DNA of 64,000 bases from Bacillota bacterium (lineage in GTDB: Bacteria > Bacillota > Clostridia > Oscillospirales > Acutalibacteraceae): positions 39,963 to 103,962 of the forward strand of contig JAETSA010000001.1 of the NCBI GenBank assembly GCA_021769885.1, given 5' to 3'. Below, in pieces: positions 1,736 through 27,472 of this stretch; within the stretch, counting starts at the first letter, position 1, and each line of letters starts with the position of its first letter. The notes below the pieces were generated by a model. It saw nothing but the letters and a program-made list of their open reading frames with translations, made no database searches and was not told the origin of the DNA. A program made the translations under genes and the position numbers.

Positions 1736-1810
1736 GCGGGTGTAGTTCAATGGCTAGAATTCCAGCCTTCCAAGCTGGCTGTGTGGGTTCGATTCCCATC
1801 ACCCGCTCCA
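1736..1810 (+). tRNA. tRNA-Gly (anticodon UCC), CCA encoded
   Basis: The sequence folds as a cloverleaf. The acceptor stem is GCGGGTG/CACCCGC. The anticodon arm is CCAGC-CTTCCAA-GCTGG with TCC at 1769..1771. The T-arm is GTGGG-TTCGATT-CCCAT, and the 3' end is TCCA. Confidence 0.93.
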
Positions 1811-1870: not shown

Positions 1871-1908
1871 ATGATATTTGAATTTATAAAATACTGAGGG
1901 TGACCATT

Positions 1909-4614
1909 ATGCAAAAAATAAAATCTGTAATGCCCCTGTGGGGACCTTATTCTAAAAAATACAGCGGAATTTCCCGTATTGTTGAGCACGCCGGTGAACA
2001 GGGGGTACGGTTTGACTTAGTCGTCAGTCCGGCTGTATCCAACACCAATACGTGTCCGCCGAATGTGACGATTCCCGTCGGTGTACATCCTTGGACGGCA
2101 AAAAGTGACTACACACACTATGCCTACCGTTGCGATTTAGAGTGGAAAGACGTTATTTACGCAGATGTTTCTTTCACAAAGCTGACAGAAGAAAGCGTGC
2201 TTGTGCGTACGGAAATATTCAATCATTCCGATTTAATGCAGAACTGCCTGGTCAATTTCTTTTCTGCCTTGGAATTTCCGACGCGTTATGAGACAATCGC
2301 GGAGCTGCCCGAAAATTGTGTGTACAAAAAAGCGTTGGATTATGAAAGCTATTCTTATCATACGCCGCGTCCGTGGGATGCACAAACGATGGATGCTATG
2401 AAAAAAGGCGAGTTCTTTGATGATGCATTTACGGAGCATCGCGGCTTGGGCGACCGTGACAACAATCGTTATATTCTGCCGAAATTTCCGAAATTCGGTG
2501 AAGAGGCAGGGGACAGCGTCAAATATGTATTTACGCTCGAAAAAGCATTTAAAACGCCGGTGCTTTGCATTCGCTATCAAACCACGGACGGGAAAGACAG
2601 CGAATTTACTTTAAACGGTGAAAAAATCGTTTTCAAAAAGACGGACGGAGAATTGCAAATCGCTGAATTTCCGTTTTCTGCATCGGAAGCGGGTGCGTGT
2701 TCTTTCGAATTTATCGCACTTGGCACAGGTGGAATTGAATTGGATTTCTTAGCTGTTTGCGAGCAGGCGGATGCGAAGAATATTCAGTGTCACAAAGCAC
2801 CGCACGATTTTATGCCGCAAATTGAAACGGTGAACTCGGAAGACGGTGCAAAGGCAGTTTACCACTATAACGGTATCGAAAAACCGTTTGTGATTCGAAC
2901 CTTTAACGAAGATACGCGGTTTCGTGCGTTTCCAAGCGGCTCGTTGGAGGACAGTCCCACCTCTCGTATTACTCAGCCGGACGAGAGTTTCGGCGATATG
3001 ATGGAGCAGTTTTCAGGCTCGTTTTCAGAGAAGCACAGTGATGACGGCTTCTATCATAATGCGGTGGTGCATACCATTTTTATTGCCCCCGGCGAAAGCA
3101 AAACGGAATATGCAGTCATTTCCTACGGTGACACTGTTTATGAAACACCTGAGGCTTATGAGCGGATATACAAAAAAGCGGTGATGGGACTCGAGCCGCT
3201 CGAATATACTGCGGCGGGCAAAAAATATGCCTTTTCCAATCAACTGTTGCGCGCGGCAATGTTCCAAAACGTGGTGTATCCGTTATATTGCCATGGTGAC
3301 TATGTGATGCATCACACACCGGGCAAACGCTGGGACTCTTTTTATACGTGGGATTCCGGATTTATCGGTTTGGATATGGCAATGTTTGCACCGAAAATCG
3401 CAGACAGCATTTTGGATATGTACTTCAGCACGGCTGACAATCCGGATTATGCATTTTTACTGCACGGTTCACCTGTGCCTGTGCATTTGTATCAGTATTT
3501 TGAAATGCTGAATCATACAAACGACAAAGCTGCGCTGTATGCATACTACAGCCGCGCGAAGCTGTTTTATGACTTTCTCGCGGGAAAAATCAACGGGTCA
3601 ACAACCGCGAAATTCAAGAGCGGTATGACAACCACTTTTGACTATTTCTATAATTGCAGCGGGATGGATGATTTGCCGCCGCAAAAAGCAATGTATCAAA
3701 AGAATATGCAAAAATTCTGTGCGCCTGTAATCTCTTCATCGCAGGTGATTCGTACCGCAAAGCTTTTGAAAATCATCGCAGAACAGCTGGGCAAAACGCA
3801 GGATGTTGCGGCATATGCATCGGATATACAGCGCTTAACGAATGCCTTGCAAACCTATTCCTGGGATGAGGCAAGCGGATATTTCTCCTATGTCGTTCAC
3901 GATGCAGACGGCGTACCCGTCGGACATTTCCTTTCGGACGACGGAGAAAATTTCAACAAGACGATGGACGGTATTTATCCGATTATCGCAGGTGCAGTAA
4001 CGGAATCGCAAAAGGAACGCATTCTTGCGCATTTGAAAAACCCGCAGGAGATGTTTACGCCTGTCGGTATCAGCGCGGTGGACAGAACCGCAGGCTATTA
4101 TGTGACCAATGGGTATTGGAACGGCAATGTGTGGCTGTCGCATCAGTGGTTTGTTTGGAAAACAATGTTGGATCTCGGTGAAACGGACTTTGCTTGGCAG
4201 ATTGCCGAAACCGCCTTAAAAGCTTGGAAAAGAGAGGTAGAGTACTCTTACTATACCTTTGAAATGTTCAGCATTGAAACGGGGCGCGGCGGCTGGTTTC
4301 ATAATTTCGGCGGACTGTCTGCGCCTGTCAATCTGTGGGCGGCGGCATACTTTACACCGGGTACATATCAAAGCGGATTTGATACATTCTGTAAATCTGC
4401 GCAGTTTAACGCGGAGCATACCGAGTTTTCAGGCATATTTCACAACTACGGCGATGCAAACGGTGCTTTACTGGTGGTTATGAACGATCAGAAGCACTAT
4501 CGTGTGCTGTTAAACGGCGCACCTACAGACTTTTATACCCGATTTGACGGTATGCTTGAAATAACCCTGCCGGTGTGCACGGAGGATTTGCACATTTCCG
4601 TTCAGCTTGTGTAA
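1909..4614 (+). CDS. Six-hairpin (alpha/alpha)6 glycoside hydrolase, GH63 / MGH1-like
   Basis: ORF 1900..4614. I prefer the ATG at 1909 behind GAGGG. Motifs CSGMDDLPP (compare ESGMDNSP) and GYWNGNVWLSHQWF (compare GYWRGPVW) are typical of GH63 / mannosylglycerate-hydrolase-like enzymes. No signal peptide is visible. Confidence 0.6.
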   Translation: MQKIKSVMPLWGPYSKKYSGISRIVEHAGEQGVRFDLVVSPAVSNTNTCPPNVTIPVGVHPWTAKSDYTHYAYRCDLEWKDVIYADVSFTKLTEESVLVRTEIFNHSDLMQNCLVNFFSALEFPTRYETIAELPENCVYKKALDYESYSYHTPRPWDAQTMDAMKKGEFFDDAFTEHRGLGDRDNNRYILPKFPKFGEEAGDSVKYVFTLEKAFKTPVLCIRYQTTDGKDSEFTLNGEKIVFKKTDGELQIAEFPFSASEAGACSFEFIALGTGGIELDFLAVCEQADAKNIQCHKAPHDFMPQIETVNSEDGAKAVYHYNGIEKPFVIRTFNEDTRFRAFPSGSLEDSPTSRITQPDESFGDMMEQFSGSFSEKHSDDGFYHNAVVHTIFIAPGESKTEYAVISYGDTVYETPEAYERIYKKAVMGLEPLEYTAAGKKYAFSNQLLRAAMFQNVVYPLYCHGDYVMHHTPGKRWDSFYTWDSGFIGLDMAMFAPKIADSILDMYFSTADNPDYAFLLHGSPVPVHLYQYFEMLNHTNDKAALYAYYSRAKLFYDFLAGKINGSTTAKFKSGMTTTFDYFYNCSGMDDLPPQKAMYQKNMQKFCAPVISSSQVIRTAKLLKIIAEQLGKTQDVAAYASDIQRLTNALQTYSWDEASGYFSYVVHDADGVPVGHFLSDDGENFNKTMDGIYPIIAGAVTESQKERILAHLKNPQEMFTPVGISAVDRTAGYYVTNGYWNGNVWLSHQWFVWKTMLDLGETDFAWQIAETALKAWKREVEYSYYTFEMFSIETGRGGWFHNFGGLSAPVNLWAAAYFTPGTYQSGFDTFCKSAQFNAEHTEFSGIFHNYGDANGALLVVMNDQKHYRVLLNGAPTDFYTRFDGMLEITLPVCTEDLHISVQLV

Positions 4615-4931
4615 TCTTCAATGATTTTTTGTATTTCGGCATCGGTTTCGGCGCATATGCCTGCAGCGATTAAGCTTCTCTCCTCGGCAGGCAGAGAATC
4701 CAAGTACACATCAAAAATTTCAACGGGCATTGCGTAACCGCGTTCATATAGTGCCAGCCTGCCTTGATACTGTGAAAACGTATACTGTGCCTCTGGTTTT
4801 TGTACGGCGGTGGTGGGTTGCACGGCGTTTTCACCTGCATTGAGTGACAAATAGCCGGCCAAAGCGATGACCAACAGCCCGCAAATAGAAATCACGATGC
4901 ATTTTTGTAATGTTTTTTGCATTTTACGCAC
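4602..4931 (-). CDS. Small N-terminally membrane-anchored protein, possibly BofC C-terminal-like
   Basis: 109 aa ORF with one N-terminal hydrophobic helix (CIVISICGLLVIALAGYL). The C-terminal pattern YQGRLALYERG..P..I.D......LP..E...L..GI......E....IEDY resembles small clostridial BofC_C-like proteins from memory. Its 3' end overlaps the convergent glycosidase gene by 13 nt. Confidence 0.5.
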   Translation of the reverse strand: MRKMQKTLQKCIVISICGLLVIALAGYLSLNAGENAVQPTTAVQKPEAQYTFSQYQGRLALYERGYAMPVEIFDVYLDSLPAEERSLIAAGICAETDAEIQKIIEDYTS

Positions 4932-5079
4932 TTCCTTTAGTTATATTTTTGGCAAAGTTTTGCTTTTTTATTAAAATTGCGTGAAATTTGGAAATTTTTA
5001 ATGAAATACAAGCAAAAATATGTTACAATACCATTGTCTGCCAAAAGATGTGCAGTATTTATACTGACGGAGGATTTTT

Positions 5080-7380
5080 ATGGCTACCAATCGAAGCAAA
5101 CAAAATACGCAAAAGCATAAAAAGCCGATGACAAAAAAACGTCGTATTACGATAACGGCGTTGCTTGCACTTGCACTTACGGCAATACTGACCATATCTA
5201 CGGTCGGTATATATGTGCTGTCGTTTATGGTTTCTTACGTAAACGGCGAGCCCCAAGTGAATTTGGAGGAATATAAAGAAAATCAGGACCAAACTACATT
5301 CATTTATGCTTACGACGCAAATAACGAAGTTACGGAGATTGCCCGTCTGCACGGCGAACAAAACCGAATTTGGGTGACCTACCGAGAAAATCCCGATGAG
5401 AGTGTGATTCCGCAGGATCTTGCCAATGCATATATCGCATTGGAGGACAAGCGCTTTTACGACCACAAGGGTGTGGACTGGTTTAGAACCTTATCTGCCG
5501 TTGTAAAAGATAGGGGCAAAACAGGCGGATCTACCTTAACACAACAGTTGATTAAAAACTTGACAGGTGAAAACAAGCGCACTTTAAACCGTAAATTCTA
5601 CGAGATTTTAATGGCGTTGAACCTTGAGAAAAATGTATCCAAGGAAACCGTTTTAGAAGCTTATATGAATACCGTTTATATGAGCCATGGCTGTTACGGC
5701 GTGCAGACGGCGTCCGAAAAGTATTTCGGCAAAAATGTGCAGGATTTGAATTTGGCGGAATGTGCGTCCTTGGCGGCGATTACACAAGCACCGTCCGCGA
5801 ACGACCCGCTTCTGCATCCCGATAAAAACCGTAAACGTCAGATGACCTGCTTAGAGAATATGAAAGAGCAAGGAAAAATTACGCAGGAACAGTACGATGA
5901 AGCTGTGGCGTACGAAATGGTTTTCACGAACAGCGAAAATTATGTGCAGTCTGAGGAGCTTGCTTCTAAACAGGCAAAAAGCGAAAATGCCGTATGGAGC
6001 TATTATGTGGATTATGTGATTCAAAGCGTGCGTGACGATTTGATGAATCAATACGGCTACTCGAAATCTCAAGCGTCTTCTATGATTTATTCGGGCGGAC
6101 TTCGTATTTACTGTGCAGTCGATTTGCGTGTGCAGGAAGCGATGGAATCCGTGTATGTCAACCGTACCTCTTTCCCGAAATACAACAAAAATATTGATGA
6201 CGCGCAGTCTGCAATGACGATTATGGATTACAGCGGACGCATTGTCGGGATGGTTGGCGGCGCAGGGGAAAAGACGCAAAACCGTGGGTTGAACCGTGCG
6301 GCGAACTCACCTCGACAGCCGGGTTCGTCCATTAAGCCGATTTCAATTTATGCGCCTGCCGTAAATGAGAAATACGTTACTTGGAGCAGTATGATTACCA
6401 ACTACGGTATTCCGCATTATTACAGTGACGGCGGTTACGGCCCCGTAAACTACGGCAATGATCCCGGTTCTCCCGATTCCAAGGTCAATGTGCAAAAGGC
6501 AATTTGTAAATCCTACAATACCGTGCCCGCACAGATTTTGAAGAAAATGGGCTTCGAAACAAGTTTTTCATACACAACGCAAAAATTCCATTTGGGTTAT
6601 ATTGTTGATCCGACTGATAAGAATACTTCTTCCTTGGCTGTCGGCGGTACTTATAAGGGTGCAACGACGTTGGAAATGGCATCGGCGTATGCTGCATTTG
6701 GCAACGGCGGTAAGTATTTTGAACCCTACTGCTATTATAAGGTTACCAACAGCAACGGTTCTAAGGTACTGTTACAGCACGAAGAATCAGCAGGTGAGCA
6801 AATCATATCTCCCGAAACCGCTGATATTATGAACGAACTCTTACAAACCGTTGTTACGGATGCGGCAGGACAGGCGACCGCGCGGAATTACGGTCTGAAA
6901 AACTCTGTGTTATTCGCCAAAACAGGTACAACCACAGAAGATAAAGACCGTTGGTTCGTCGGCGGTACACCGTATTATGTTGCGGCGGTTTGGTTCGGTT
7001 GCGATGAACCGAAGCAGATATCCAATTATGTTACCGGCAACCCTTCAGGCGCGATTTTTGATGCGGTTATGAATGCTGTGCACAAAGGCTTGGAATCCAA
7101 ATCGTTTACGAAGTTTTCACCGATTGTCGAGCAGCATGCTTATTGCACTGCGACAGGGCTGTTGGCAAGCGACAGCTGTCCAAGCAAAGCTATGGGGTGG
7201 TACTCTAAAGAAAATTTGCCGGGACGCTGCACTTCCTGCACAGGGGCTGTGCCGGAAGCTCCCGAAGAGCCTGTGGCAACCGAGCCGCAGTCCAGTGCAT
7301 CGCCCGAGCCGACCACTGAGGCTGCAACGAGCAATGCGGGAGAGCCTGCAACAAACGGCGCAACAGATGCAACGCCTTAA
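5080..7380 (+). CDS. Class A penicillin-binding protein (bifunctional glycosyltransferase/transpeptidase, PBP1A-like)
   Basis: N-terminal TM anchor. GT51 motifs EDKRFYDHKGVD and GGSTLTQQL are present. Transpeptidase motifs SSIKP (SxxK) and KTGTT are present. The C-terminal tail is rich in P/E/T/A. Confidence 0.92.
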   Translation: MATNRSKQNTQKHKKPMTKKRRITITALLALALTAILTISTVGIYVLSFMVSYVNGEPQVNLEEYKENQDQTTFIYAYDANNEVTEIARLHGEQNRIWVTYRENPDESVIPQDLANAYIALEDKRFYDHKGVDWFRTLSAVVKDRGKTGGSTLTQQLIKNLTGENKRTLNRKFYEILMALNLEKNVSKETVLEAYMNTVYMSHGCYGVQTASEKYFGKNVQDLNLAECASLAAITQAPSANDPLLHPDKNRKRQMTCLENMKEQGKITQEQYDEAVAYEMVFTNSENYVQSEELASKQAKSENAVWSYYVDYVIQSVRDDLMNQYGYSKSQASSMIYSGGLRIYCAVDLRVQEAMESVYVNRTSFPKYNKNIDDAQSAMTIMDYSGRIVGMVGGAGEKTQNRGLNRAANSPRQPGSSIKPISIYAPAVNEKYVTWSSMITNYGIPHYYSDGGYGPVNYGNDPGSPDSKVNVQKAICKSYNTVPAQILKKMGFETSFSYTTQKFHLGYIVDPTDKNTSSLAVGGTYKGATTLEMASAYAAFGNGGKYFEPYCYYKVTNSNGSKVLLQHEESAGEQIISPETADIMNELLQTVVTDAAGQATARNYGLKNSVLFAKTGTTTEDKDRWFVGGTPYYVAAVWFGCDEPKQISNYVTGNPSGAIFDAVMNAVHKGLESKSFTKFSPIVEQHAYCTATGLLASDSCPSKAMGWYSKENLPGRCTSCTGAVPEAPEEPVATEPQSSASPEPTTEAATSNAGEPATNGATDATP

Positions 7381-7389
7381 GGAGATGCT

Positions 7390-8685
7390 ATGGCCGATAT
7401 ACTGTTTACCAATGCACGGGTGATTGACCCGTCACAAAATGTCGATTGTGTGTGCGATATGCTTTGCAAGAACGGAAAAATCGCACAGATGGACAAAAAT
7501 ATTATTTGCGAGGGTGCACAACAAATTGATGCTTCGGGGCTGATTTTAGCCCCGGGGCTCATTGACATTCATACCCATTTGCGTGACCCCGGCTTCACAC
7601 AGAAAGAAGATATCCTGACAGGCTGTGCGGCAGCGGCGGCAGGCGGCGTAACGACCCTATGTGCGATGCCCAATACAAATCCGACTTGTGATACGCCCGA
7701 AACCATCCAATATATTTTAGAAAAAGCAAAAGGCGCAAAAGCGCGTGTATTGCCTGTGGCTGCAATCACAAAAGGCTTGCAGGGGGAAGTCCTCTCTGAT
7801 ATGGAAGCCCTGGCGGCGGCGGGCGCGTGTGCATTTTCGGATGACGGTGTTCCGGTCGCGACAGCGGATTTGATGCGCCGAGCTATGGAAAAGGCGGCAG
7901 AATTGCATTTGCCGATTTTAGCACATACGGAGGATAAATCTCTTTCGGTCAAAGGGATTATGAATCAGTGCGCACTTGCCGACAAGCTTTCGGCGGCAGG
8001 CATCCCGAACAGCGCGGAGGATGTCGGAACGGCGCGTGAAATCGCACTGTTGATGAGTGCGCCGAAGGATACGCATTTACACATTTGTCACGTGAGCACG
8101 GCAGGGAGTGCCGCATTGATTGCCGATGCCAAAAAGCGCGGCTTAGCTATCACGGCGGAAACTTGTCCGCACTATTTTATGTTTACAGATGAAAAACTGG
8201 CGGCGCAGGATGCAGATTACCGTATGAATCCGCCATTGCGTTCCGAATGTGACCGAAAGGCAATCTTTGAGGCGGTATTGAACGGCACGTTGGATGCAAT
8301 TGCAACTGACCACGCACCGCACACCGCCGCAGAAAAGAGTGATTTTTACAGAGCACCGAACGGTGTAATCGGTATGGAAACTTCCTTTGCCGCAAGCTAT
8401 ACCGCCCTTGTCAAGAGCGGTGCAATGACCGTTTCGGAGCTTTTGCGCAGAATGTCCTGTGCGCCCGCGCAGATTTTGGGCATCGACGCAGGTACACTTC
8501 GCATCGGTGCACGTGCCGATTTGATTTTGATTGATGAAAATGCGTCGTGGACAGTTGATGTGCACGCATTGCATGGCAAATCCAAAAATTGCGTGTTTAA
8601 AAACTGCACATTGCAATCTAAGGTGAAAATGACCGTTTTAAACGGTGAAATTGTATATGATGAACTTACAAAGGGGAATGAATAA
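7390..8685 (+). CDS. pyrC: Dihydroorotase
   Basis: Metal-binding motifs DIHTHLRDPG and ATDHAPH. 431 aa. Starts 9 nt after the PBP stop codon, behind GGAG. Confidence 0.9.
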   Translation: MADILFTNARVIDPSQNVDCVCDMLCKNGKIAQMDKNIICEGAQQIDASGLILAPGLIDIHTHLRDPGFTQKEDILTGCAAAAAGGVTTLCAMPNTNPTCDTPETIQYILEKAKGAKARVLPVAAITKGLQGEVLSDMEALAAAGACAFSDDGVPVATADLMRRAMEKAAELHLPILAHTEDKSLSVKGIMNQCALADKLSAAGIPNSAEDVGTAREIALLMSAPKDTHLHICHVSTAGSAALIADAKKRGLAITAETCPHYFMFTDEKLAAQDADYRMNPPLRSECDRKAIFEAVLNGTLDAIATDHAPHTAAEKSDFYRAPNGVIGMETSFAASYTALVKSGAMTVSELLRRMSCAPAQILGIDAGTLRIGARADLILIDENASWTVDVHALHGKSKNCVFKNCTLQSKVKMTVLNGEIVYDELTKGNE

Positions 8686-8686
8686 A

Positions 8687-9604
8687 ATGGGCTTTGACAG
8701 ACTTTGCGAGGCAATTCTCGAAAAAAAGAATCCGACAGTAGCGGGTTTAGACCCGAAGCTTGCTTTCGTGCCGAATTTTATTAAAGAGGAATCCTTTAAA
8801 AAATTTGGAAACACTTTAGAGGGCGCTGCTGATGCACTTTTGACCTTTAACAAGGGCTTAATCGATGCGCTTTGTGATATTGTACCTGCTGTAAAACCGC
8901 AGTGCGCGTATTATGAAATGTACGGCTGGCAAGGCGTAAAAGCATTGCACGATACAATTGCATACGCAAAGGAAAAGGGACTTTTTGTGATTACCGACGG
9001 AAAACGCAACGACATCGGCACAACAATGGAAGCCTATGCGGCGGCACATCTCGGCGAAGTCGAGGTGGACGATGCAGCATTCGCACCGTTCGGCGGGGAT
9101 GCGCTGACTGTGAACGGCTATCTCGGCAGTGACGGCATCCATCCGCTTTTGCCGATCTGCAAGGAAAAGGACAAAGGCATTTTTGTACTTGTGAAGACTT
9201 CGAATCCTTCTTCGGGGGAATTGCAGGATAAAATGATTGCGGAGGAGACTGTTTACAGAACGATGGGCGATATGTGCGAGCAGTGGGGCGAGGACACGCG
9301 CGGTGCGTACGGCTATTCCGCTGTCGGCGCAGTTGTCGGCGCAACCTATCCCGCACAGCTCGGTGAGCTTCGCAAAGCTTTGCCGCACACGCTGTTCTTG
9401 GTTCCCGGTTACGGCGCACAGGGCGGCGGCGCACAGGATGTCGTACCCGCTTTTGATGCACGTGGATTGGGCGCAATTGTCAATTCTTCCCGTGCGATTA
9501 TGTGTGCTTATAAAAAAGGAGATTGGCAAGAGGAAGATTATGCAAAAGCGGCACGTGCGGAAGCAATTCGTATGCGCGATGAAATTGCGGCGGCTTTAAA
9601 ATAA
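8687..9604 (+). CDS. pyrF: Orotidine 5'-phosphate decarboxylase (long, type 2 form)
   Basis: ORF 8645..9604. I prefer the ATG at 8687 (MGFDRL...), directly after the pyrC stop and behind AAGGGGA. Motifs GLDPK, KPQCAYYE and DGKRNDIGTT are present. Confidence 0.85.
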   Translation: MGFDRLCEAILEKKNPTVAGLDPKLAFVPNFIKEESFKKFGNTLEGAADALLTFNKGLIDALCDIVPAVKPQCAYYEMYGWQGVKALHDTIAYAKEKGLFVITDGKRNDIGTTMEAYAAAHLGEVEVDDAAFAPFGGDALTVNGYLGSDGIHPLLPICKEKDKGIFVLVKTSNPSSGELQDKMIAEETVYRTMGDMCEQWGEDTRGAYGYSAVGAVVGATYPAQLGELRKALPHTLFLVPGYGAQGGGAQDVVPAFDARGLGAIVNSSRAIMCAYKKGDWQEEDYAKAARAEAIRMRDEIAAALK

Positions 9605-9623
9605 GAAAAAGGAGCAAATCCTT

Positions 9624-10703
9624 ATGGCGGAACATATGAAGAAAGCATATTTGCTGTTAGAGGACGGCACGGTTTTTGTTGGAAATTCGATGGGCAAAGT
9701 CGGCACGGCGATTGGTGAGGTCGTGTTTAATACCTGCACAGCTTCCTATGAAGAATTGTTGGCAGACCCGACTTATTACGGTCAAATCGTTGCGCAAACC
9801 TATCCGTTGGTCGGCAACCGCGGTGTAGCAGGTGAAAACCGTGACTCGGATATAATGTCAAACGGCTATATTGTGCGCGAATGGTGTAAAGTTCCCGCAG
9901 GCGGTGTTTCTCTGCATGAATATCTTCTCGGGCGCGGGATTGTCGGTCTGAGTGGGATTGACACACGGCGCTTGACGCGTATTTTGCGGGATAAAGGCTA
10001 TATGAAAGGCGCGATTACCGATTCGTTGGAAAATCAAGCGGATTTGCTTCGCGAAATCCGTGCATACACGATTTCGGGTGCGGTAGAAGCGGTTACTGTG
10101 AAAGCACCGCAGCATCTGTCGGCTGAAAACGAGAAATACAGAGTTGCTGTATTGGATTACGGCTTTCCGCGAAAAATTTTAGAAGCCTTGCTTTCCCGAG
10201 GCTGTTCTGTAGATATTTTTCCTGCCTCTTATACGGCAGAGCAAGTGGCGGCAGGAAAGCCGGACGGAATCTTCTTGTCGGACGGACCTGCTGACCCCGA
10301 TGACAATCCTGTTTTTATTCAAAATATTGCAGAAATTGTGAAATTAGGCGTGCCCGTATTTGCTGTCGGGCTTGGACATCAGATGTTAGCCCTGGCAAAG
10401 CAGGCGGAAATTGTAAAAATGCCGCAGGGGCATCGCGGTTCGAATCAGCCTGTTTTGGTTTTGGAATCTGAAACACTGATGGTGACAGAGCAGAATCACG
10501 GCTACACAGTAAATCAAGAGAGCTTTCCGGCGAATGTGGCGGAAGTTTCTATGATTAATATCAATGACGGCTCTGTGGAAGGTCTTTATTATCCGTCCGT
10601 TCCTGCGCTCAGTGTGCAGTTTACGCCCGACGGCAATCCTGACAGCAGTACCTCGTGGATATTTGACCGTTTTGTTGAAATGTTAGGGGAGGCGCACGTA
10701 TGA
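9624..10703 (+). CDS. carA: Carbamoyl-phosphate synthase small (glutaminase) subunit homolog with its catalytic triad replaced
   Basis: Clear CarA fold signature: GEVVFNT, YPLVGN, GIDTRRLTR, GHRGSNQPV, QNHGY. At the nucleophile motif FGICLGHQ this protein reads FAVGLGHQ, with Gly at 10368..10370. At VQYHPE it reads VQFTPD (10614..10631). Confidence 0.85.
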   Translation: MAEHMKKAYLLLEDGTVFVGNSMGKVGTAIGEVVFNTCTASYEELLADPTYYGQIVAQTYPLVGNRGVAGENRDSDIMSNGYIVREWCKVPAGGVSLHEYLLGRGIVGLSGIDTRRLTRILRDKGYMKGAITDSLENQADLLREIRAYTISGAVEAVTVKAPQHLSAENEKYRVAVLDYGFPRKILEALLSRGCSVDIFPASYTAEQVAAGKPDGIFLSDGPADPDDNPVFIQNIAEIVKLGVPVFAVGLGHQMLALAKQAEIVKMPQGHRGSNQPVLVLESETLMVTEQNHGYTVNQESFPANVAEVSMININDGSVEGLYYPSVPALSVQFTPDGNPDSSTSWIFDRFVEMLGEAHV

Positions 10704-13696
10704 AACAGCAGTTTAGGAAGATTTTAGTGGTCGGCGCAGGCCCTGTTGTGATCGGTCAGTCTGCGGAATACGATTATGCAGGTACGCAGATGTGCCGCGT
10801 ATTAAAGCAGGAGGGTATAGAAGTTGTTTCCGTAAACTCCAATCCGACAACCGTAATGACTGACCGCCGCTTAGCGGATTCCGTATATATTGAGCCGTTA
10901 AACAGTGAAACAATCAAAAAAATCATTGAAACGGAAAAGCCTGACGCAGTGCTTGCAACGGCGGGCGGTAAAACAGGCTTGGAAATTTGTTTGGAGCTTG
11001 CGCAAAACGGCTACTTGGAAGAGCATCACGCAGTTTTACTCGGCGCACAGCCTGAGGTAATCAAAAGCGTTCGCAACGAGCAGGCACTGCAAACGATGCT
11101 GCAAGCGGCAAAGGAACCGTATTTGCCGAGTGCTATTGTCAGTTCCGAAACCGAGACCTTGCAGTTCGCAGAAGCGGTTGGGTATCCTGTTTCCTGTAAA
11201 TCTGCATTTTCGGCAGAAGGCGGTGCTTTCATACGTTGCGATACAGAGGAAGCTTTGATTGCCTGCTTTACACAAAGCGTGCAAAAATCCCTTGTCGGGC
11301 AAGCTATGCTGACGAAATGCGTAGAGGGCTATAAAGAAATTGAATTTGCCTGCATTCGCGATACAGACGGTAACTGCATCAGTGTTTGCAGTACAGAAAA
11401 TATTGACGCGGTCGGCGTACACACAGGAGACAGCATTGCTGTCCTGCCTGCGCAGACTTTAACAGATTCCGAAACTGCGATGCTGCGCCGCGCGGCACGA
11501 AAAATTGCCCGCCATTTGAAAATTGAAGGTGTATGCTTAGTTCGATTTGCGCTCCATCCGGATTCGGGCGAATACTTTGTTTTGGGTGCTGAACCGCAGC
11601 TGAACCGTACAACGGCACTGATTTCCAAAGTAACAGGCTATCCGATTGCGGCAGTTTGCGCAAAAATTGCACTCGGATACCGTCTGTATGAAATTGCAAA
11701 CGAAATCACAGGCAAAACAACGGCGGCAAACGAGCCCGCAATCGACTATTGTGCGGTGAAAATCCCGAAATGGTCATTTGAAAATTTTGACGATGCTACC
11801 CGTAAACTCGACGAAACTATGAAAGCAACCGGCGAAGCCTTTGCAATCGGTACGGGGTTTGAATTGGCATTCTTAAAAGCGGTCCGCTCCGTGAATCCGA
11901 AAACCGAGCATATTTCCTTGCCGAAGCTTCGATTGAAATCTGATACGGAAATCAGAGATTTGCTGGCATCTCGGGACAATGAGCGTGTGTTTGTCATTTA
12001 CGAAGCAATTAAGCGCGGATTTTCTTTGCAGGATATTCACGCGCAAACGAGCATTGATATGTTCTTCCTGTCGAAGTTTAGAAATATTGCAGATGCGGAA
12101 CTTTCGCTGTGTGCGGACTTGAATGAAGAAACCTATCTGTATGCGAAATCCATCGGATTCTTGGATTCTGTGATTTTAAAGCTGACCGATAATGAATCTT
12201 TGCATTTTAAGGCGCGTTCCTCATATAATACTGTGGACACCTGCGCCGCAGAATACGACGTGCAGAAACCGTATTTTTATTCTGCGTGGGATGAGGAAAA
12301 TGAAGCGGAGATGTTCTTAAAGGCAAATCCCGCAAAGAAGAAAAAAATCTTAGTGGTCGGCTCGGGTCCCACCTCTGTTGGGCTTGGAACGGATCGCGAT
12401 TATGCGGCATATCAGGCGCTTTATACCTTGCGGGATTTCGGCTATGAAACGGTTATGCTCAACAACAATCCTGCGGCGAACACAACGGATTTTGCCGCAG
12501 CTGACAAGCTGTATGTAGATCCGATTACCGAAGAAGATATCGAGAGCGTTGTGCTGACCGAAAAGCCGGACGGTGCTATTTTGGTGTTCGGCGGCGGCGA
12601 AGCGTTGCGGAAATCCGAGATTTTACGCACAATGGGCGTTACGGTTTACGGCGCGGATGCATCGGTACACAGAGCACTCAAAAACAAAATTGAGTTTTTC
12701 GATATCTTAGATAAACTGAATATCCGCCATACAGGCAGTCGCAAAGTCTTGGTCGGCAAGGGTGTCGAAGTAGATGTACTGACGGACGGTGAAGATTTCT
12801 TAATTCCCGGGATTTGTGAGCATATTGAAAAAGCACAGGTGCACTCAGGGGATTCGATTTCGGTTTATCCGACGGTATCTTTGTCAGATTCCGTTAAACA
12901 GGCGGTCGTGGAATATACCGGGCGTTTGGTGCGTGAATTGGGACTTCGCGGACTTTTGAATATTCAATTTGTCGTGTATGACAACGAAGTTTATGTCACA
13001 AGCGCAAGCGCAGTGGCAACACGGAATATTCCCTTTATGACGAAAGCTTCTGCTTTGCCGATTGTGGAATTTGCTACGCGCCTAATGCTCGGCGAGTCCA
13101 TTCGGGATATCGGTGTCGGTACAGGACTTTACAAGGAATCCAATCGGTATTTTGTTCGTGTTCCAGTGTTTAGTTTTGAACAGCTGGAGGGTACGGATGT
13201 CCGACTCGGCGCGGAAATGAAATCTACCGGCGAGGTTATGGGCGTGGCTGACAATTTTGCAGAGGCACTGCTCAAGGGGTTCATCGCTTCGGGTATGCGT
13301 ATGAAACGCACAGGCGGCGTGCTGATTTCCGTTGCGGATTCCGATAAACAAGCTGCCGTGCCGCTCGGCGATGCATTCCTAAATCAGAATTTCAAGGTTT
13401 ATGCAACCTCAAATACGGCAAAATTACTGAATGCAAATCATGTCGCGGCAAATGCGGTCCGTAAAATTCACGAGGGAGAGCCGAATACGTTGACGCTGAT
13501 TTTGAAAAATCGCTTGTCTTATTTGGTATCTACTGCACAAAGCGGACCAAAAACGAACTCAGACGATGTGCGCATCCGCCGTACGGCACTTTTGCGTCGC
13601 ATTCCGGTTTTACCGTCCGTAGAAACAGCTGTAGCACTGTCAAAATGTTTGGCAGAAAACGATACGGTTGAAGAAATTCGTGTGCAAAAATTATAA
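10700..13696 (+). CDS. carB: Carbamoyl-phosphate synthase large subunit homolog, shortened, with degenerate ATP-grasp active sites
   Basis: 998 aa and collinear with CarB: GAGPVVIGQSAEYDYAGTQ, GVHTGDSI, MKATGE, EMKSTGEVMG, and an MGS-like C-terminus. EMNPRVSRSS reads GAEPQLNRTT (11585..11611). EVNPR(A/S)(A/S)RT reads TSASAVATRN (12995..13024). The Gly-rich loop reads AEGGAFI. The second RPSYVLGGR subdomain is missing near 12727..12775. The 4 nt start/stop overlap with carA is ATGA. Confidence 0.85.
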   Translation: MKQQFRKILVVGAGPVVIGQSAEYDYAGTQMCRVLKQEGIEVVSVNSNPTTVMTDRRLADSVYIEPLNSETIKKIIETEKPDAVLATAGGKTGLEICLELAQNGYLEEHHAVLLGAQPEVIKSVRNEQALQTMLQAAKEPYLPSAIVSSETETLQFAEAVGYPVSCKSAFSAEGGAFIRCDTEEALIACFTQSVQKSLVGQAMLTKCVEGYKEIEFACIRDTDGNCISVCSTENIDAVGVHTGDSIAVLPAQTLTDSETAMLRRAARKIARHLKIEGVCLVRFALHPDSGEYFVLGAEPQLNRTTALISKVTGYPIAAVCAKIALGYRLYEIANEITGKTTAANEPAIDYCAVKIPKWSFENFDDATRKLDETMKATGEAFAIGTGFELAFLKAVRSVNPKTEHISLPKLRLKSDTEIRDLLASRDNERVFVIYEAIKRGFSLQDIHAQTSIDMFFLSKFRNIADAELSLCADLNEETYLYAKSIGFLDSVILKLTDNESLHFKARSSYNTVDTCAAEYDVQKPYFYSAWDEENEAEMFLKANPAKKKKILVVGSGPTSVGLGTDRDYAAYQALYTLRDFGYETVMLNNNPAANTTDFAAADKLYVDPITEEDIESVVLTEKPDGAILVFGGGEALRKSEILRTMGVTVYGADASVHRALKNKIEFFDILDKLNIRHTGSRKVLVGKGVEVDVLTDGEDFLIPGICEHIEKAQVHSGDSISVYPTVSLSDSVKQAVVEYTGRLVRELGLRGLLNIQFVVYDNEVYVTSASAVATRNIPFMTKASALPIVEFATRLMLGESIRDIGVGTGLYKESNRYFVRVPVFSFEQLEGTDVRLGAEMKSTGEVMGVADNFAEALLKGFIASGMRMKRTGGVLISVADSDKQAAVPLGDAFLNQNFKVYATSNTAKLLNANHVAANAVRKIHEGEPNTLTLILKNRLSYLVSTAQSGPKTNSDDVRIRRTALLRRIPVLPSVETAVALSKCLAENDTVEEIRVQKL

Positions 13697-13728
13697 TACT
13701 GTGCATAAATTCATAAGAAAGGAACGGT

Positions 13729-14532
13729 ATGGATAATAGGTATCCATATCGTAAGGGCTTTTTGATGTTTCAATCCGAATACAAAATTCAATCGATAACG
13801 CAACTGAATCCGACAACCTACAGCTTGGTTTTGGAGTGCGCCGAATTGGCTGCCGAAAGTTGGTGCGGTCGATTTGTAAATATTCGTTGCGGTGAAAAAC
13901 CTTTACGCAGACCGATTTCAATTAGTGAAATTGATAAAGAGAACGGCACGATTACCTTAGTGTTTGAGGTGCGCGGAGAGGGTACAGAGTGGCTTTCTAC
14001 ACGCAGAGCGGGAGAAAAATTGGACGTTTTGGGCCCGCTTGGCAACGGATTTTTCCCGGATTCGGCAAAACGCGCAATTTTTATCGGCGGCGGTATCGGT
14101 TGCCCGCCTATGCTCGGTGCGGCGCAGGAGTACGGTGAGAATGCAGAAGCGATTTTAGGTTTTCGTTCCGCTGCGCAAATTATTTTGTTAGATAAATTCA
14201 AAGCCTGCTGTCAATCGGTAGACGTGACCACGAATGACGGTTCTTTCGGTGTAAGGGGCTTTGTCACTGATGTTTTAGCGGACAAGCTTTCCGAGAATAA
14301 AGATTGCGTAGTGTATGCCTGCGGTCCGATGCCGATGCTCAAAGGCGTCGCACAAATGTGTGCACAAAATGACGTGCAGTGCTTTGTTTCTTTGGAACAG
14401 CGTATGGGCTGCGGCGTCGGGGCGTGCTTGGTTTGCGCGTGCAAAACACACGAGGCAGACGGCGAGCATATGCGCCATGTTTGCAAAAACGGTCCTGTGT
14501 TTGATGCAAAGGAGGTCGATTTCGGTGGCTGA
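13729..14532 (+). CDS. pyrK: Dihydroorotate dehydrogenase (class 1B) electron-transfer subunit
   Basis: FAD/NAD-binding ferredoxin-reductase-like fold plus a C-terminal 2Fe-2S motif, CGVGACLVCACK. Lies directly upstream of pyrD. Confidence 0.85.
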   Translation: MDNRYPYRKGFLMFQSEYKIQSITQLNPTTYSLVLECAELAAESWCGRFVNIRCGEKPLRRPISISEIDKENGTITLVFEVRGEGTEWLSTRRAGEKLDVLGPLGNGFFPDSAKRAIFIGGGIGCPPMLGAAQEYGENAEAILGFRSAAQIILLDKFKACCQSVDVTTNDGSFGVRGFVTDVLADKLSENKDCVVYACGPMPMLKGVAQMCAQNDVQCFVSLEQRMGCGVGACLVCACKTHEADGEHMRHVCKNGPVFDAKEVDFGG

Positions 14533-15436
14533 TTTAAGGGTGAATATTGCAGGTGTTGCATTTAAAAATCCTGTGATTACCGCGAGCGGTACATTTGGGT
14601 TCGGACAGGAGTATGCCAGGCTTTACGACATTTCAAAGCTTGGCGGAATTTCCTGCAAAGGCACGACTTTAGAACCGCGTATGGGTAATCTGTCGCCGCG
14701 CATAGCCGAAACACCGTCAGGCATTCTCAACAGTGTCGGATTGCAAAATCCGGGTGTAGAAGGCTTTTTAAAAAACGATTTACCTCTTCTTGAAAATACA
14801 GATACAGTGGTTATTGCCAATATTGCAGGCAGTCAAATAGAGGATTACATCGAAACCGTGCGCCGTTTGCAGGGCTCGTCTGTAGATATGATTGAAATGA
14901 ATATTTCGTGCCCGAACGTCAAAGAAGGCGGCGTTTCCTTCGGTACATCGCCTGAGAGCGTGGAGCGTATTACGAAGCAGGTTAAAGCCGTGGCTGAACA
15001 GCCTTTAATCGTTAAGCTAACACCGAATGTCACGGACATTGCCGAGATTGCCGCGGCTGCAGAAGCCGGCGGTGCAGACGCAATTTCCTTAATCAATACG
15101 CTGACTGGCATGAAAATCGATATTGAAACCCGCCGCCCGTTGCTGAAAAATAACACAGGCGGTATGTCGGGTGCGGCGGTATTCCCTGTGGCGCTGCGTA
15201 TGGTTTGGCAGGCGGCAAACCGCGTGCAGATTCCTGTAATCGGCTTGGGTGGCATCACAAAATGGCAGGACGCAGTCGAAATGCTTTTGGCAGGTGCTAC
15301 CGCAGTGCAAATCGGTACGGCGAATTTTACCGATGCCTACACGCCGCTTAAGGTGATTGAAGGCTTGGACGCCTATTTGGACGCACACGGCGAAAAATCC
15401 GTGATGGATATCGTCGGCAAGGTGCAGGTATGGTAA
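14525..15436 (+). CDS. pyrD: Dihydroorotate dehydrogenase (class 1B) catalytic subunit
   Basis: The ORF track extends this frame back to 14315, inside pyrK. The homologous N-terminus (LRVNIAGVAFKNPVITASGTFG) starts at GTG 14525, behind AAGGAGG (14508..14514). The active-site motif NISCPN is present. Confidence 0.88.
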   Translation: MADLRVNIAGVAFKNPVITASGTFGFGQEYARLYDISKLGGISCKGTTLEPRMGNLSPRIAETPSGILNSVGLQNPGVEGFLKNDLPLLENTDTVVIANIAGSQIEDYIETVRRLQGSSVDMIEMNISCPNVKEGGVSFGTSPESVERITKQVKAVAEQPLIVKLTPNVTDIAEIAAAAEAGGADAISLINTLTGMKIDIETRRPLLKNNTGGMSGAAVFPVALRMVWQAANRVQIPVIGLGGITKWQDAVEMLLAGATAVQIGTANFTDAYTPLKVIEGLDAYLDAHGEKSVMDIVGKVQVW

Positions 15437-15843
15437 TTTTATCTGTAGATTACGGGGATGCTCGAACGGGAATCGCCGTTTGCGATAAGCTCGAATTGAT
15501 GGCCTCTCCCGTGACGGTGATTCACGAGCGCGAAAATGACCGTCTGGTGGCATGCATTGCAGAAATTGCGAAAGAAAAGCGTGCGGAGAAAATCGTCTTG
15601 GGACTTCCGAAAAATATGGACGGCTCTGAAGGCTTTCGCGCTGAAGCCTGCCGGGCTTTTGGCGCAGCACTCTCAGAAGCTGCAAATCTGCCTGTGGATT
15701 TTCAAGATGAGCGCTTAACAACCGTTTCTGCGCACCAAATGCTGAATGCTACGGATACACGCGGCAAAAAGCGAAAGGAGCTTGTGGATGCGGTGTCCGC
15801 TGTGATTATCTTAGAAGATTATTTGCGCAAAATGAAAAATTAA
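15430..15843 (+). CDS. ruvX: Holliday-junction resolvase-like / pre-16S rRNA nuclease YqgF (RuvX)
   Basis: 137 aa. The N-terminus ILSVDYGDARTGIAVCD is typical of YqgF. It overlaps the pyrD stop codon (ATGGTAA). Confidence 0.85.
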   Translation: MVILSVDYGDARTGIAVCDKLELMASPVTVIHERENDRLVACIAEIAKEKRAEKIVLGLPKNMDGSEGFRAEACRAFGAALSEAANLPVDFQDERLTTVSAHQMLNATDTRGKKRKELVDAVSAVIILEDYLRKMKN

Positions 15844-19470: not shown

Positions 19471-20901
19471 ATGAAATACGATGTAGTGGTGATCGGTGCA
19501 GGCGTTGTTGGCGCACTGATTACCCGAGAGCTTTCCAAGCTCAATGTCCGTGTGGCTATGGCTGACAAGTTTAACGACGTTGCCATGGGCACAACCAAAG
19601 CCAACAGCGCGATTGTGCACGGTGGCTTTGATGCGGCAAACGGCACTTTGAAAGCAAAGCTGAACGTTCGCGGCACTGAGCTGATGCCGCAGATTTGCAA
19701 GGCGCTTTCTGTACCGTATCGCAACAACGGTTCCTTGGTTTTGGCATTTTCCGAGAAAGAAATGGAGCACGTCCATACGCTTTATGCGCGCGGCGTGAAA
19801 AACGGTGTTCCCCGTCTTTCTGTTGTGGACAAGGAAACCGTTTTGAAAATGGAACCGCATGTGAGCGAAGAGGTGGTCGGGGCGTTGCTTTCTGAATCCG
19901 CTGGTATCGTTTGCCCGTACGAATTGACGATTGCGGCGGCGGAGAATGCAGTTACAAACGGCGCGGAATTTTTGCGTAACTGTGAAGTGCAGGCAATCCG
20001 CGAAGAAAACGGAGAGTTCGTTTTAGAAACCTCTCTCGGCGAAATCACAGCACAATATGTTGTCAATGCCGCAGGCATTCACTCCGATGATATCGCGCGT
20101 ATGATTGGGGATGATTCCATTTCTTTGGTCGCGCGCAAAGGCGAGTATTATCTTTTGGATAAGTCCTTCGGCTATATGGCGGATCACACAATTTTCCAAT
20201 GCCCCAATGAGATGGGTAAGGGCGTTTTGGTTACACCGACTGTAGATGGCAACTTACTGATTGGACCTTCTGCGTTGGATGTGGATGACAAAGAAGATGT
20301 CGATACTACACCCGAGGGCTTGGAGTTTATTGTAGAAAAGGCGAAAAAATCTGTACCGACCTTGAATGTGCGCGGCGCGATTACTTCCTTTGCAGGAATG
20401 CGTGCACATCCCGTCACGGATGATTTCATTATTGCATTTTCCGAAAAGAATGACCGCTTCTTGAATGTGGCAGGTATTGAATCTCCCGGTCTTTCGGCGG
20501 CACCTGCAATCGCAGAAATGGTTGCGGGTATGTTCAAAGAAAAAGCAGAGCTTACCGAAAAATCCGAATATACAGAAACACGCGAAGCACCCGTTCGTTT
20601 CCGTCATATGACGAAGTCGGAGCGCGAAGCCTTAATCGCGAAAAATAAAGCATACGGCAGAATCATTTGCCGTTGTGAAACTATCACTGAGGGCGAAATC
20701 GTGGATGCGATTCACGCGCCCGCAGGCGCACGCGATGTAGACGGTGTTAAGCGCCGCACACGCGCGGGTATGGGCAGATGCCAAGGCGGATTTTGCGGTT
20801 CGAAAGTGGTTGAGATTCTCGCACGTGAACTGAATGTTCCGATGAATGAAATTACAAAATTCGGCGGCGAATCGAAAATTCTGTTTGAGAAAACAAAGTG
20901 A
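19471..20901 (+). CDS. FAD-dependent glycerol-3-phosphate dehydrogenase-like oxidoreductase (GlpA-like) with a BFD-like [2Fe-2S] domain
   Basis: N-terminal Rossmann motif DVVVIGAGVVGA. The C-terminal region CRCETITEGEIVDAI....GMGRCQGGFC is a BFD-like Cys motif. Confidence 0.8.
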   Translation: MKYDVVVIGAGVVGALITRELSKLNVRVAMADKFNDVAMGTTKANSAIVHGGFDAANGTLKAKLNVRGTELMPQICKALSVPYRNNGSLVLAFSEKEMEHVHTLYARGVKNGVPRLSVVDKETVLKMEPHVSEEVVGALLSESAGIVCPYELTIAAAENAVTNGAEFLRNCEVQAIREENGEFVLETSLGEITAQYVVNAAGIHSDDIARMIGDDSISLVARKGEYYLLDKSFGYMADHTIFQCPNEMGKGVLVTPTVDGNLLIGPSALDVDDKEDVDTTPEGLEFIVEKAKKSVPTLNVRGAITSFAGMRAHPVTDDFIIAFSEKNDRFLNVAGIESPGLSAAPAIAEMVAGMFKEKAELTEKSEYTETREAPVRFRHMTKSEREALIAKNKAYGRIICRCETITEGEIVDAIHAPAGARDVDGVKRRTRAGMGRCQGGFCGSKVVEILARELNVPMNEITKFGGESKILFEKTK

Positions 20902-20912
20902 GGTGTGAAGAA

Positions 20913-22169: not shown

Positions 22170-22173
22170 CGCA

Positions 22174-22533
22174 ATGGAAAAAAGAGATTTAATTTGTGTA
22201 TCGTGCCCCATCGGCTGTGCAATTACTGTGGAGCTGGACGATAACGGGCAAGTTACTTCGGTCACAGGCAATACTTGTAAGCGCGGGGACAGTTATGCAC
22301 GGCAGGAATGTACGCATCCCGAACGGATGCTGACTTCCACCGTCAAGGTTACGGGCGGCAGACTGCCGGTTGTGCCTGTCAAATCCGCAAAACCGATTCC
22401 GAAGGAATTTCTGTTTGACTGTATGACAGAAATCAATAAGGTCACTTTGACTGCGCCTGTAAAAATCGGCGATGTAGTACTCAAGAATATCTTGAATACA
22501 GGGGTAGACATCGTCGCAACAAACGAGGCGTAA
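22174..22533 (+). CDS. DUF1667 domain protein (Cys-rich small subunit of the trio)
   Basis: 119 aa with the N-terminal CxxCPxGC...TGNxCxRG pattern (CVSCPIGC...TGNTCKRG). Confidence 0.75.
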   Translation: MEKRDLICVSCPIGCAITVELDDNGQVTSVTGNTCKRGDSYARQECTHPERMLTSTVKVTGGRLPVVPVKSAKPIPKEFLFDCMTEINKVTLTAPVKIGDVVLKNILNTGVDIVATNEA

Positions 22534-23647: not shown

Positions 23648-23974
23648 ATGAAGTACAGTAAAGAATTGTTGAAGGGGAGTACATCCCTCTTGGTTTTAAG
23701 CATTTTAAAGCGCGCTGACCTGTACGGTTACCGTATTATCCGTGAATTAGAAATGGCGAGCGAGAATGCCTTTTCTATGACCGAGGGGACGCTCTATCCG
23801 ATTTTACACGCACTGGAGAAAGAGAATTACTTAGAATCCTATTGGCGTGAGTTTGACGGCAGAAACCGCAAGTATTATCACATTACCCGTAAAGGGCTTC
23901 GTGCCTTAGAGGAGAAAAAGCAGGAATGGGAATCTTTTTCTGCAAGCGTCACAAAGGTACTGAATTATGCGTGA
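23648..23974 (+). CDS. PadR family transcriptional regulator
   Basis: 108 aa winged-HTH protein with LLVLSIL....LYGYRIIREL.......EGTLYPILHALEKENYLESYW. Confidence 0.88.
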   Translation: MKYSKELLKGSTSLLVLSILKRADLYGYRIIRELEMASENAFSMTEGTLYPILHALEKENYLESYWREFDGRNRKYYHITRKGLRALEEKKQEWESFSASVTKVLNYA

Positions 23975-27292: not shown

Positions 27293-27472
27293 AAAAATGC
27301 CCCTTTGTAAAAAATAAATAAAATATTTGCCGTTGCCAAAGAAATATAATTAAATTCTACCATATTTGTTTATAATTTGTCAATCGACAACTAACACCTA
27401 TCTGTTCATTTGTATTTTTTAAGAGAATGTGTTATACTGATGATAACTGTAGAAGACAGAAGAGGAGCTTTT

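Follow-up and report, generated by a model that had tools for sequence, protein, structure and literature searches.

Why would a pyrimidine operon keep both subunits of a carbamoyl-phosphate synthase (CPSase) after the residues of its active sites have been replaced? The question is raised by a pair of adjacent genes in a 64-kb stretch of DNA (64,000 nucleotides, referred to below as the window) from a bacterium of the Acutalibacteraceae, a family of the Clostridia. The genes derive from carA and carB and are called here dcarA and dcarB, with d standing for degenerate. With a probability put at about 0.63, the pair descends from the operon CPSase, has lost catalysis, is maintained by selection and acts by binding, likely as a nucleotide-sensing regulatory or scaffolding module. 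The features on which this reading is based are the following, all on the forward (+) strand and numbered from the first letter of the window; residue numbers in substitutions are those of E. coli CarA and CarB.

9624..10703, +, dcarA: CarA-derived small subunit of 359 aa, glutaminase triad dead
10700..13696, +, dcarB: CarB-derived protein of 998 aa, both ATP sites degenerate
11198..11233 (aa 167-178), +, degenerate Gly-rich T-loop of ATP-grasp 1: KSAFSAEGGAFI in place of RPSFTMGGSGGGI of E. coli, R169K included
11537..11614, +, former metal-binding strands of ATP site 1: LVRFA at 11537-11551 (Q285R) and GAEPQLNRTT at 11585-11614 (E299G, N301E, R303Q)
12719..12778, +, in-frame deletion junction, between nucleotides 12748 and 12749: NIRHTGSRKV at 12719-12748, LVGKGVEVDV at 12749-12778
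12998..13027, +, former metal-binding strand of ATP site 2: TSASAVATRN in place of IEVNPRAART
13292..13693 (about aa 865-998), +, allosteric MGS-like domain, conserved more strongly in its clade than any other part of the protein

Domain Architecture and Lost ATP Sites of dCarB

The product of the dcarB open reading frame (ORF) had been described in a preliminary description as collinear with CarB, which was borne out by phmmer, MAFFT and Foldseek. Residues 4-681 correspond to residues 6-693 of E. coli CarB and residues 689-996 to 762-1066 (phmmer against 1a9x_A); E. coli carAB served as the numbering reference, which agrees with the structural literature, and the ligands were scored by MAFFT. 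Identity amounts to 35% with E. coli CarB and to 45% with intact CarB proteins of Oscillospirales. Pfam recognizes PF25596 and PF02786 twice each, as well as PF02787 and PF02142, and the domain order is complete (preATP-grasp, ATP-grasp, oligomerisation, preATP-grasp, ATP-grasp, MGS-like allosteric) except that the second ATP-grasp has no lid. The protein scores 967 bits against NF003671 (cut-off 599) and 952 bits against TIGR01369 (cut-off 1027), and is not assigned here as a functional CPSase because the defining catalytic features fail. An AlphaFold2 model computed from a 45-sequence family alignment (predicted local distance difference test, pLDDT, 88.6; predicted template modelling score, pTM, 0.90) was placed by Foldseek on E. 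coli CarB with a TMq of 0.91-0.92 (0.92 to 1ce8_A).

At ATP site 1 the changes comprise R129E, R169K, GGSG to EGGA, Q285R, E299G, N301E and R303Q. At ATP site 2 they comprise E841S, N843S and R845V together with the deletion at the junction, which spans 61 residues by MAFFT (E. coli 697-757) and removes the lid, or B subdomain, of the carbamate-phosphorylating ATP-grasp including R715 and RPSYVLGG. The preliminary description had reported lost ligands in the first half (KSAFSAEGGAFI, LVRFA, GAEPQLNRTT), a gap of about 60-70 residues between NIRHTGSRKV and LVGKGVEVDV and the segment TSASAVATRN in the second half. All of these were located, with motif coordinates that had been right to within 3 nt (GAEPQLNRTT had been given at 11585..11611 and TSASAVATRN at 12995..13024), and alignment to E. 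coli CarB, residue for residue, confirmed that the ATP-grasp ligands are really replaced at both sites. At neither site does dCarB appear to carry the catalytic equipment for the CPSase reaction; the lost ligands, T-loop, lid and CarA nucleophile all point to a protein that would be non-catalytic for carbamoyl-phosphate synthesis, as had been proposed.

The elements said to be retained were also found: the motifs GVHTGDS, QVHSGDS, MKATGEAFAIG and EMKSTGEVMG are present and the oligomerisation (PF02787) and MGS-like (PF02142) domains were detected. In the alignment, the residues that would form the phosphate pocket for uridine or inosine monophosphate (UMP/IMP) are present as well (S948, K954, T974, T977, K993 and T1016). 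Thr977 and Lys993 of CPSase have been implicated in UMP inhibition and UMP binding (PMC6245113).

The Glutaminase Subunit dCarA

The claim that the CarA partner is dead was upheld by alignment to 1t36_B, in which dCarA reads AVGLGHQ (C269G) and VQFTPD (H353T, E355D). Cys269 and His353 are essential residues of the glutaminase (PMC6245113). Values of 0.026-0.078 were obtained for dcarA as the ratio of nonsynonymous to synonymous substitution rates (see below). The Cys269-His353-Glu355 triad is lost in all 19 CarA copies examined beside a degenerate or an Avimonas-type CarB, the latter being the type found in Ca. Avimonas and allied metagenome-assembled genomes (MAGs).

Conservation Profile Compared With Intact Sisters

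As an intact control, a search with the CarB of the related MAG L016 provided 120 full-length CarB proteins (mean pairwise identity 0.77), among them those of [Clostridium] cellulosi, Youxingia and Ca. Soleaferrea. At both sites the charged ATP ligands, the metal-binding ones and the T-loop glycines are invariant in 120 of these 120 proteins; Ser177, Leu210 and Leu756, which are naturally variable, are excepted, and a few isolated deviations occur at 208 and 754. Close relatives within the window's clade differ from one another at most of the ligand positions that survive (position 129 is A, E, T or P, and position 299 is G, S, D or A) and the T-loop is variable.

The conservation profile of the degenerate proteins is inverted with respect to that of intact CarBs, the allosteric domain being the most conserved part and the lids the least. 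Expressed relative to the whole protein, the entropy of the allosteric domain is 0.77 in the window's clade and 1.58 in the intact sisters, while that of the B1 lid is 1.75 and 1.16, respectively. Among 25-residue segments of the clade's proteins, the best conserved fall in the allosteric domain and the worst over the former T-loop (entropy 1.87). The pocket residues K954, T974, T977, K993 and T1016 are invariant in 29 of 29 members, and the mean entropy of the pocket residues is below that of random residue sets (P=0.006). From 522 positions that are invariant in intact enzymes, 242 (46%) survive in the degenerate proteins, with large differences among domains: 72% in the oligomerisation domain, 57% in the allosteric domain, 52-54% in the grasp cores, 21% in lid 1 and 3% in lid 2. 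Selection is concentrated on the oligomerisation and allosteric parts.

Distribution in Relatives and Purifying Selection

A protein search with dCarB was performed, and its best 120 matches (clusters) are all degenerate. They comprise 82 clusters of 984-990 aa (about 50% identity), 28 of 996-1000 aa (64-98% identity), 7 of 1052-1053 aa, 2 of 936 aa and 1 of 999 aa. The carriers are gut MAGs of the Oscillospiraceae/Acutalibacteraceae type, and some clusters contain hundreds to thousands of members (up to 3519). No stop or frameshift occurs in at least 120 clusters spanning about 50-98% identity. The same substitutions and the same-boundary deletion recur in more than 100 independent protein clusters, and the boundaries of the lid deletion are identical in the 998-, 986-, 936- and 999-aa representatives, that is, in every deletion-bearing clade checked; on this ground the 61-aa gap is not put down to faulty assembly or to a frameshift artefact.

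The ratio of nonsynonymous to synonymous substitution rates (dN/dS) was calculated by the Nei-Gojobori method (NG86) for the window against L026, the nearest relative (dS 0.28). It is 0.038 for dcarB (dN 0.011, dS 0.28) and 0.026 for dcarA, next to 0.059 for pyrC, 0.066 for pyrF, 0.078 for pyrK and 0.036 for pyrD. Each domain of dCarB gives a dN/dS of at most 0.13 in this closest pair, and remoter pairs give similar values at saturated dS. A pseudogene was rejected, given a reading frame that is intact in at least 120 clusters and a dN/dS of about 0.04. dCarB matches the definition of a pseudoenzyme, a conserved but catalytically deficient homologue, its catalytic residues being lost and its predicted fold kept under purifying selection (dN/dS 0.038-0.10). 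The idea of a conserved complex put forward in the preliminary description agrees with the low dN/dS and the intact predicted fold, and the same degenerate pair recurs in related genomes.

Apparent Order of the Losses

[Clostridium] cellulosi shares the synteny of the operon and has both CPSase subunits intact, and by this synteny dcarA and dcarB are orthologues of the operon CPSase. Between the two, relatives of the window can be arranged in stages as follows.

Stage 0, [C.] cellulosi (pyrR-pyrC-pyrF-carA-carB-pyrK-pyrD-x-ruvX): CarA intact, CarB intact
Stage 1, Ca. Avimonas and allied MAGs (1063-1066 aa): CarA with C269G and H353 changed to E or M, CarB intact
Stage 2, 1052-aa clade (Ca. Fimivicinus): CarA dead (C269G, H353T), site 2 dead and undeleted (Q829R, E841H, N843S), site 1 nearly intact (Q285R, N301D)
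Stage 3, 999-aa forms L015, L019 and P0099: CarA dead in L015 and L019, lid deleted, E299 and R303 kept in L015 and L019, E299G already in P0099
Stage 4, 986-aa clade and the window's clade: CarA dead, site 1 decayed further

The series suggests that the CarA triad was lost first, followed by ATP site 2, the site-2 lid and finally ATP site 1. In a neighbour-joining tree (200 bootstraps) the degenerate proteins are monophyletic in 200 of 200 replicates and the deletion-bearing set in 182 of 200, and the sister group of the degenerate proteins is the Avimonas-type, intact CarB. The shared deletion boundaries, the shared C269G and the shared synteny with PBP1A upstream agree with the tree.

A fully intact CarB (all ATP ligands, 1063-1066 aa) is encoded in the loci L008-L014, L016-L018, L020 and L022 (e.g., L016 8881-13183), and the CarA beside it, where scored (L009-L012, L016, L020 and L022), carries C269G and H353 changed to E or M. 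From their sequences, the Avimonas-type loci seem to encode a bacterial counterpart of CPS I, an ammonia-dependent CPSase whose small subunit is a pseudo-glutaminase.

The Locus in the Window

dcarA and dcarB lie in a tightly packed string of genes at 5080-15843 (+), in the order class A penicillin-binding protein (PBP), pyrC, pyrF, dcarA, dcarB, pyrK, pyrD and ruvX. The neighbours of the pair are listed below.

5080..7380, +, class A PBP: upstream neighbour kept in all degenerate clades
7390..8685, +, pyrC (dihydroorotase, DHOase): catalytic motifs intact
8645..9604, +, pyrF (orotidine 5'-monophosphate decarboxylase, type 2): likely start at 8687
13729..14532, +, pyrK: electron-transfer subunit of dihydroorotate dehydrogenase B
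14525..15436, +, pyrD (dihydroorotate dehydrogenase 1B catalytic subunit): catalytic Cys motif NISCPN present
15430..15843, +, ruvX: overlaps the end of pyrD, conserved downstream neighbour

The stop of dcarA and the start of dcarB overlap by 4 nt (ATGA), which suggests translational coupling. In alignments to solved structures PyrC of the window retains HxH, DDG, H, H and D and PyrD retains the NISCPN cysteine, so that the decay is specific to the CarA/CarB pair. The stop of the class A PBP gene and the start of pyrC are separated by 10 nt (7380-7390), and the pyr genes are apparently co-transcribed with the cell-wall synthase. No PyrR gene precedes pyrC in the window (intervals 7380-7390 and 4614-5080), whereas a PyrR-like gene occupies that place in [C.] cellulosi and L016; a coupling of PyrR loss to CarB decay was rejected since this gene is also absent from several loci with an intact CarB. 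An Rfam scan of the whole 64-kb window detected no PyrR-binding leader and no other riboswitch, the sole match at the gathering threshold being a tRNA gene at 1736-1807 (+).

Downstream of ruvX, spoIIGA and then sigE follow, the host being a spore-forming member of the Clostridia with a GC content of about 45%. The nearest genomes are uncultured gut MAGs ('Ruminococcaceae' UBA7212, UMGS234 and Candidatus Fimenecus). Further downstream, a trio of genes at 19471-22533 encodes a flavin adenine dinucleotide oxidoreductase (DAO and BFD [2Fe-2S]), a pyridine-nucleotide-disulphide oxidoreductase and a small ORF. The trio, which is conserved in L030-L034, where the small ORF is annotated DUF1667, is similar to a module of the anaerobic glycerol-3-phosphate dehydrogenase type. 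Glycan-degrading enzymes are encoded at 1900-4614, 27410-28906 and 34888-37848 (an MGH1/GH63-like hydrolase, a GH29 alpha-L-fucosidase with an F5/8 type C domain and a GH38 alpha-mannosidase), a set consistent with a gut organism that forages on host glycans. Two long ORFs, at 23967-25220 (+, 417 aa) and 25289-27292 (-, 667 aa), matched nothing in Pfam at E<=1e-5.

The Pair Outside the Operon

The preliminary description had presented the pair as embedded in a pyrimidine operon. This is correct for the window, but membership in the operon is not essential for dcarA and dcarB, because a 986-aa subclade keeps them without pyr genes at the locus. In all four loci of the 986-aa clade, which represent both its subclades, the order is PBP1A-dcarA-dcarB-ruvX-spoIIGA-sigE (L030 6613-13374, L032 6578-13374, L033 6278-13066, L034 4604-11374). 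Both pyrC-pyrF on one side and pyrK-pyrD on the other are gone, by two separate deletions that left the pair in between. In this clade the dN/dS is 0.053-0.094 for dcarB and 0.059-0.10 for dcarA, similar to that of PBP1A, ruvX and sigE. The arrangement suggests that de novo pyrimidine synthesis was lost or relocated in the 986-aa subclade, with auxotrophy as a possible consequence. The 936-aa subclade keeps pyrC, pyrF, pyrK and pyrD (L031 107-9585, GCA_003704445.1).

Proposed Function and Alternative Explanations

The reading favoured here assumes that dCarB keeps a CarB-like predicted fold, with the oligomerisation domain, two ATP-grasp cores and the allosteric domain, and that catalysis would have been lost with the CarA nucleophile and histidine, the phosphate, T-loop and metal ligands of site 1 and the lid and metal ligands of site 2. 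The complex would then work through binding instead of catalysis, and the retained UMP/IMP-type phosphate pocket and oligomerisation surfaces could serve in nucleotide sensing or scaffolding.

Several points weigh against this reading. The 936-aa CarB-derived protein has lost the adjacent carA gene and about 60 residues of its oligomerisation domain (E. coli about 473-554), which means that any function common to these proteins does not strictly need dCarA. The 986-, 999- and 1052-aa relatives keep most site-1 ligands and might still bind or hydrolyse ATP. Catalytic death is predicted from residue losses, pseudoenzymes sometimes relocate catalytic residues and the residue replacing N301 (E or D) is still a carboxylate; the putative sensor or scaffold role, in turn, is read from conservation. 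Most pairs have a dS above 1, so that the window against L026/L027 (0.28) and L030 against L033 (0.95) are the only informative comparisons. The neighbour-joining tree is open to long-branch attraction, and all carriers are MAGs or metagenome contigs.

A pair that still works as a CPSase, or as a half-reaction enzyme (an ATP-dependent carbamate or carboxyphosphate synthase) with non-canonical or relocated ligands and perhaps a separate kinase, is very improbable. Such an enzyme could be argued from the ATP-grasp cores, which are also under purifying selection, from the retention of E215, D238, H243, S247, R306 and both K-loop motifs, and from site 1 of the 1052-, 999- and 986-aa forms, which has R129, R169 and R303, with N301 changed to D. 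Furthermore, E299 is present in the 1052-aa and the L015/L019 999-aa forms (it is Gly in the 986-aa clade and P0099) and Q285 in the 986-aa forms and L015/L019 (it is Arg in the 1052-aa clade and P0099). In the window's clade, however, the former ligand positions differ among close relatives, which implies no constraint on those positions, and the T-loop region is the least conserved segment; moreover, site 2 has neither E841, N843 and R845 nor any of its lid, and CarA lacks Cys269 and His353. Equally little credit is given to a functionless relic in slow decay that is carried along by its position inside an essential operon. Three active sites are lost, the 936-aa form has suffered further losses (dcarA and part of the oligomerisation domain) and only 46% of the intact-invariant positions survive, as a relic would have it, but decay is difficult to reconcile with frames free of stops and frameshifts in at least 120 clusters of about 50-98% identity, with dN/dS values of about 0.04-0.10, equal to those of essential neighbours, or with an allosteric domain that is under more constraint than in real CPSases, and the 986-aa subclade kept the pair when two deletions removed the flanking pyr genes.

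A new catalytic activity, located for instance in the MGS-like domain or in a remodelled site-2 cavity, is improbable. The unusually strong conservation of the MGS-like domain speaks for it, as do 20 clade-specific fixed replacements that separate degenerate from intact proteins, several of them near the former site 2 or the deletion junction (D674N, E676I, R689H, P690T, N843S, S847T and K891R); yet no new catalytic motif was recognized, Pfam and NCBIfam return CPSase domains only, and the conserved residues of the pocket are those with which an ordinary CPSase binds its ligands. Also unlikely is a solely structural role of the pair, as a scaffold that would hold aspartate transcarbamylase (ATCase), DHOase or dihydroorotate dehydrogenase together in a pyrimidine metabolon or channel external carbamoyl phosphate, like the inactive DHOase-like subunits of some ATCases. 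The genes sit between pyrC-pyrF and pyrK-pyrD, overlapping or closely spaced, the oligomerisation domain has been retained best when measured against intact enzymes, and inactive DHOase-like partners provide a precedent in the same pathway. Against this stand the 986-aa subclade, which has the pair at a locus devoid of pyr genes, and the absence of pyrB nearby in any Oscillospirales locus examined. A sensor that has been neofunctionalised is put forward tentatively: the former CPSase would have ceased to make any product, would sense a pyrimidine or purine nucleotide or phosphoribosyl pyrophosphate in its preserved allosteric pocket and would pass the signal to a partner outside de novo pyrimidine synthesis. 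This would explain why a whole subclade kept the pair after the loss of pyrC, pyrF, pyrK and pyrD from the locus.

Source of Carbamoyl Phosphate

If dCarA and dCarB are a catalytically dead pair, the carbamoyl phosphate for the intact downstream Pyr enzymes presumably comes from elsewhere. E. coli CarA, CarB, PyrB, PyrI, ArgI and the carbamate-kinase-like YbcF were used as BLASTP and TBLASTN queries against the 64-kb window and 22 related loci (about 10 kb on either side of the gene). No second carAB, pyrB, ornithine transcarbamylase (OTC) or carbamate kinase was found in the window or in the related Oscillospirales loci, and the sole extra match beyond dcarA and dcarB was one pyrB, in the outgroup L021. 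Other possible routes would be carbamate kinase, a catabolic OTC or a second CPSase. Thermococcus has no CPS and obtains carbamoyl phosphate from arginine (or citrulline) by means of OTC (PMC13260591).

Relation to Known Systems

Bacterial CarAB/PyrAA-PyrAB (E. coli 1JDB and 1BXR; [Clostridium] cellulosi) has the same two-gene layout, domain order and UMP/IMP pocket residues as dCarA and dCarB, and in the [C.] cellulosi-type operon the genes take the same position (pyrC-pyrF-carA-carB-pyrK-pyrD-ruvX). Unlike bacterial CarAB, the degenerate pair has three destroyed active sites, a 61-residue lid deletion, an inverted conservation profile and a score below the TIGR01369 cut-off. Carbamoyl-phosphate synthetase I (CPS I) of ureotelic animals (human CPS1, 5DOU) resembles dCarA in that a small-subunit-like module persists as a structural element although its glutaminase nucleophile has gone; the two ATP sites of CPS I, unlike those of dCarB, are retained, and it is a highly active, ammonia-dependent enzyme. 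Its pattern of an inactive glutaminase with two intact ATP sites is absent from the pair of the window and found only in L008-L014, L016-L018, L020 and L022, that is, in stage-1 relatives (dead CarA, intact CarB), which resemble a bacterial analogue of CPS I.

Non-catalytic DHOase-like proteins include PyrC' of the Pseudomonas ATCase and the DHOase-like domain of yeast Ura2. In these cases a fold of the pyrimidine pathway has been selected as a structural or regulatory partner after the loss of catalysis, as is proposed for dCarA and dCarB; they differ from the pair in fold and pathway step, and their client is known (ATCase). The proteins associated with phosphoribosyl pyrophosphate synthetase (PRPS) and other metabolic pseudoenzymes are catalytically deficient homologues that keep ligand-binding and oligomerisation surfaces, like dCarA and dCarB. 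PRPS-associated-type pseudoenzymes are paralogues that form one complex with the active enzyme, whereas dCarA and dCarB are by synteny orthologues of the only CPSase of the operon. The preliminary description knew of no account of such a pair, and no description of a dead CarAB or pseudo-CPSase was found in the literature searched.

Concluding Remarks

If the sensor reading is true, no bacterial pseudo-CPSase complex with a signalling or scaffolding role would have been described before this pair. Its relatives represent ordered intermediates on the way from a tunnel-containing enzyme with three active sites to a pseudoenzyme in which the oligomerisation domain and the allosteric pocket are the parts under selection. 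Judging from the intermediates in which an intact CarB is paired with a dead glutaminase, gut bacteria appear to have CPS-I-like, ammonia-dependent CPSases. Since the genes are annotated as "carbamoyl-phosphate synthase large subunit," metabolic reconstructions will wrongly credit an abundant lineage of gut Clostridia with carbamoyl-phosphate synthesis. The carbamoyl phosphate of these organisms could really come from carbamate kinase, from arginine or citrulline by way of OTC, or from cross-feeding, and the subclade devoid of pyrC, pyrF, pyrK and pyrD at the locus may be a pyrimidine auxotroph.

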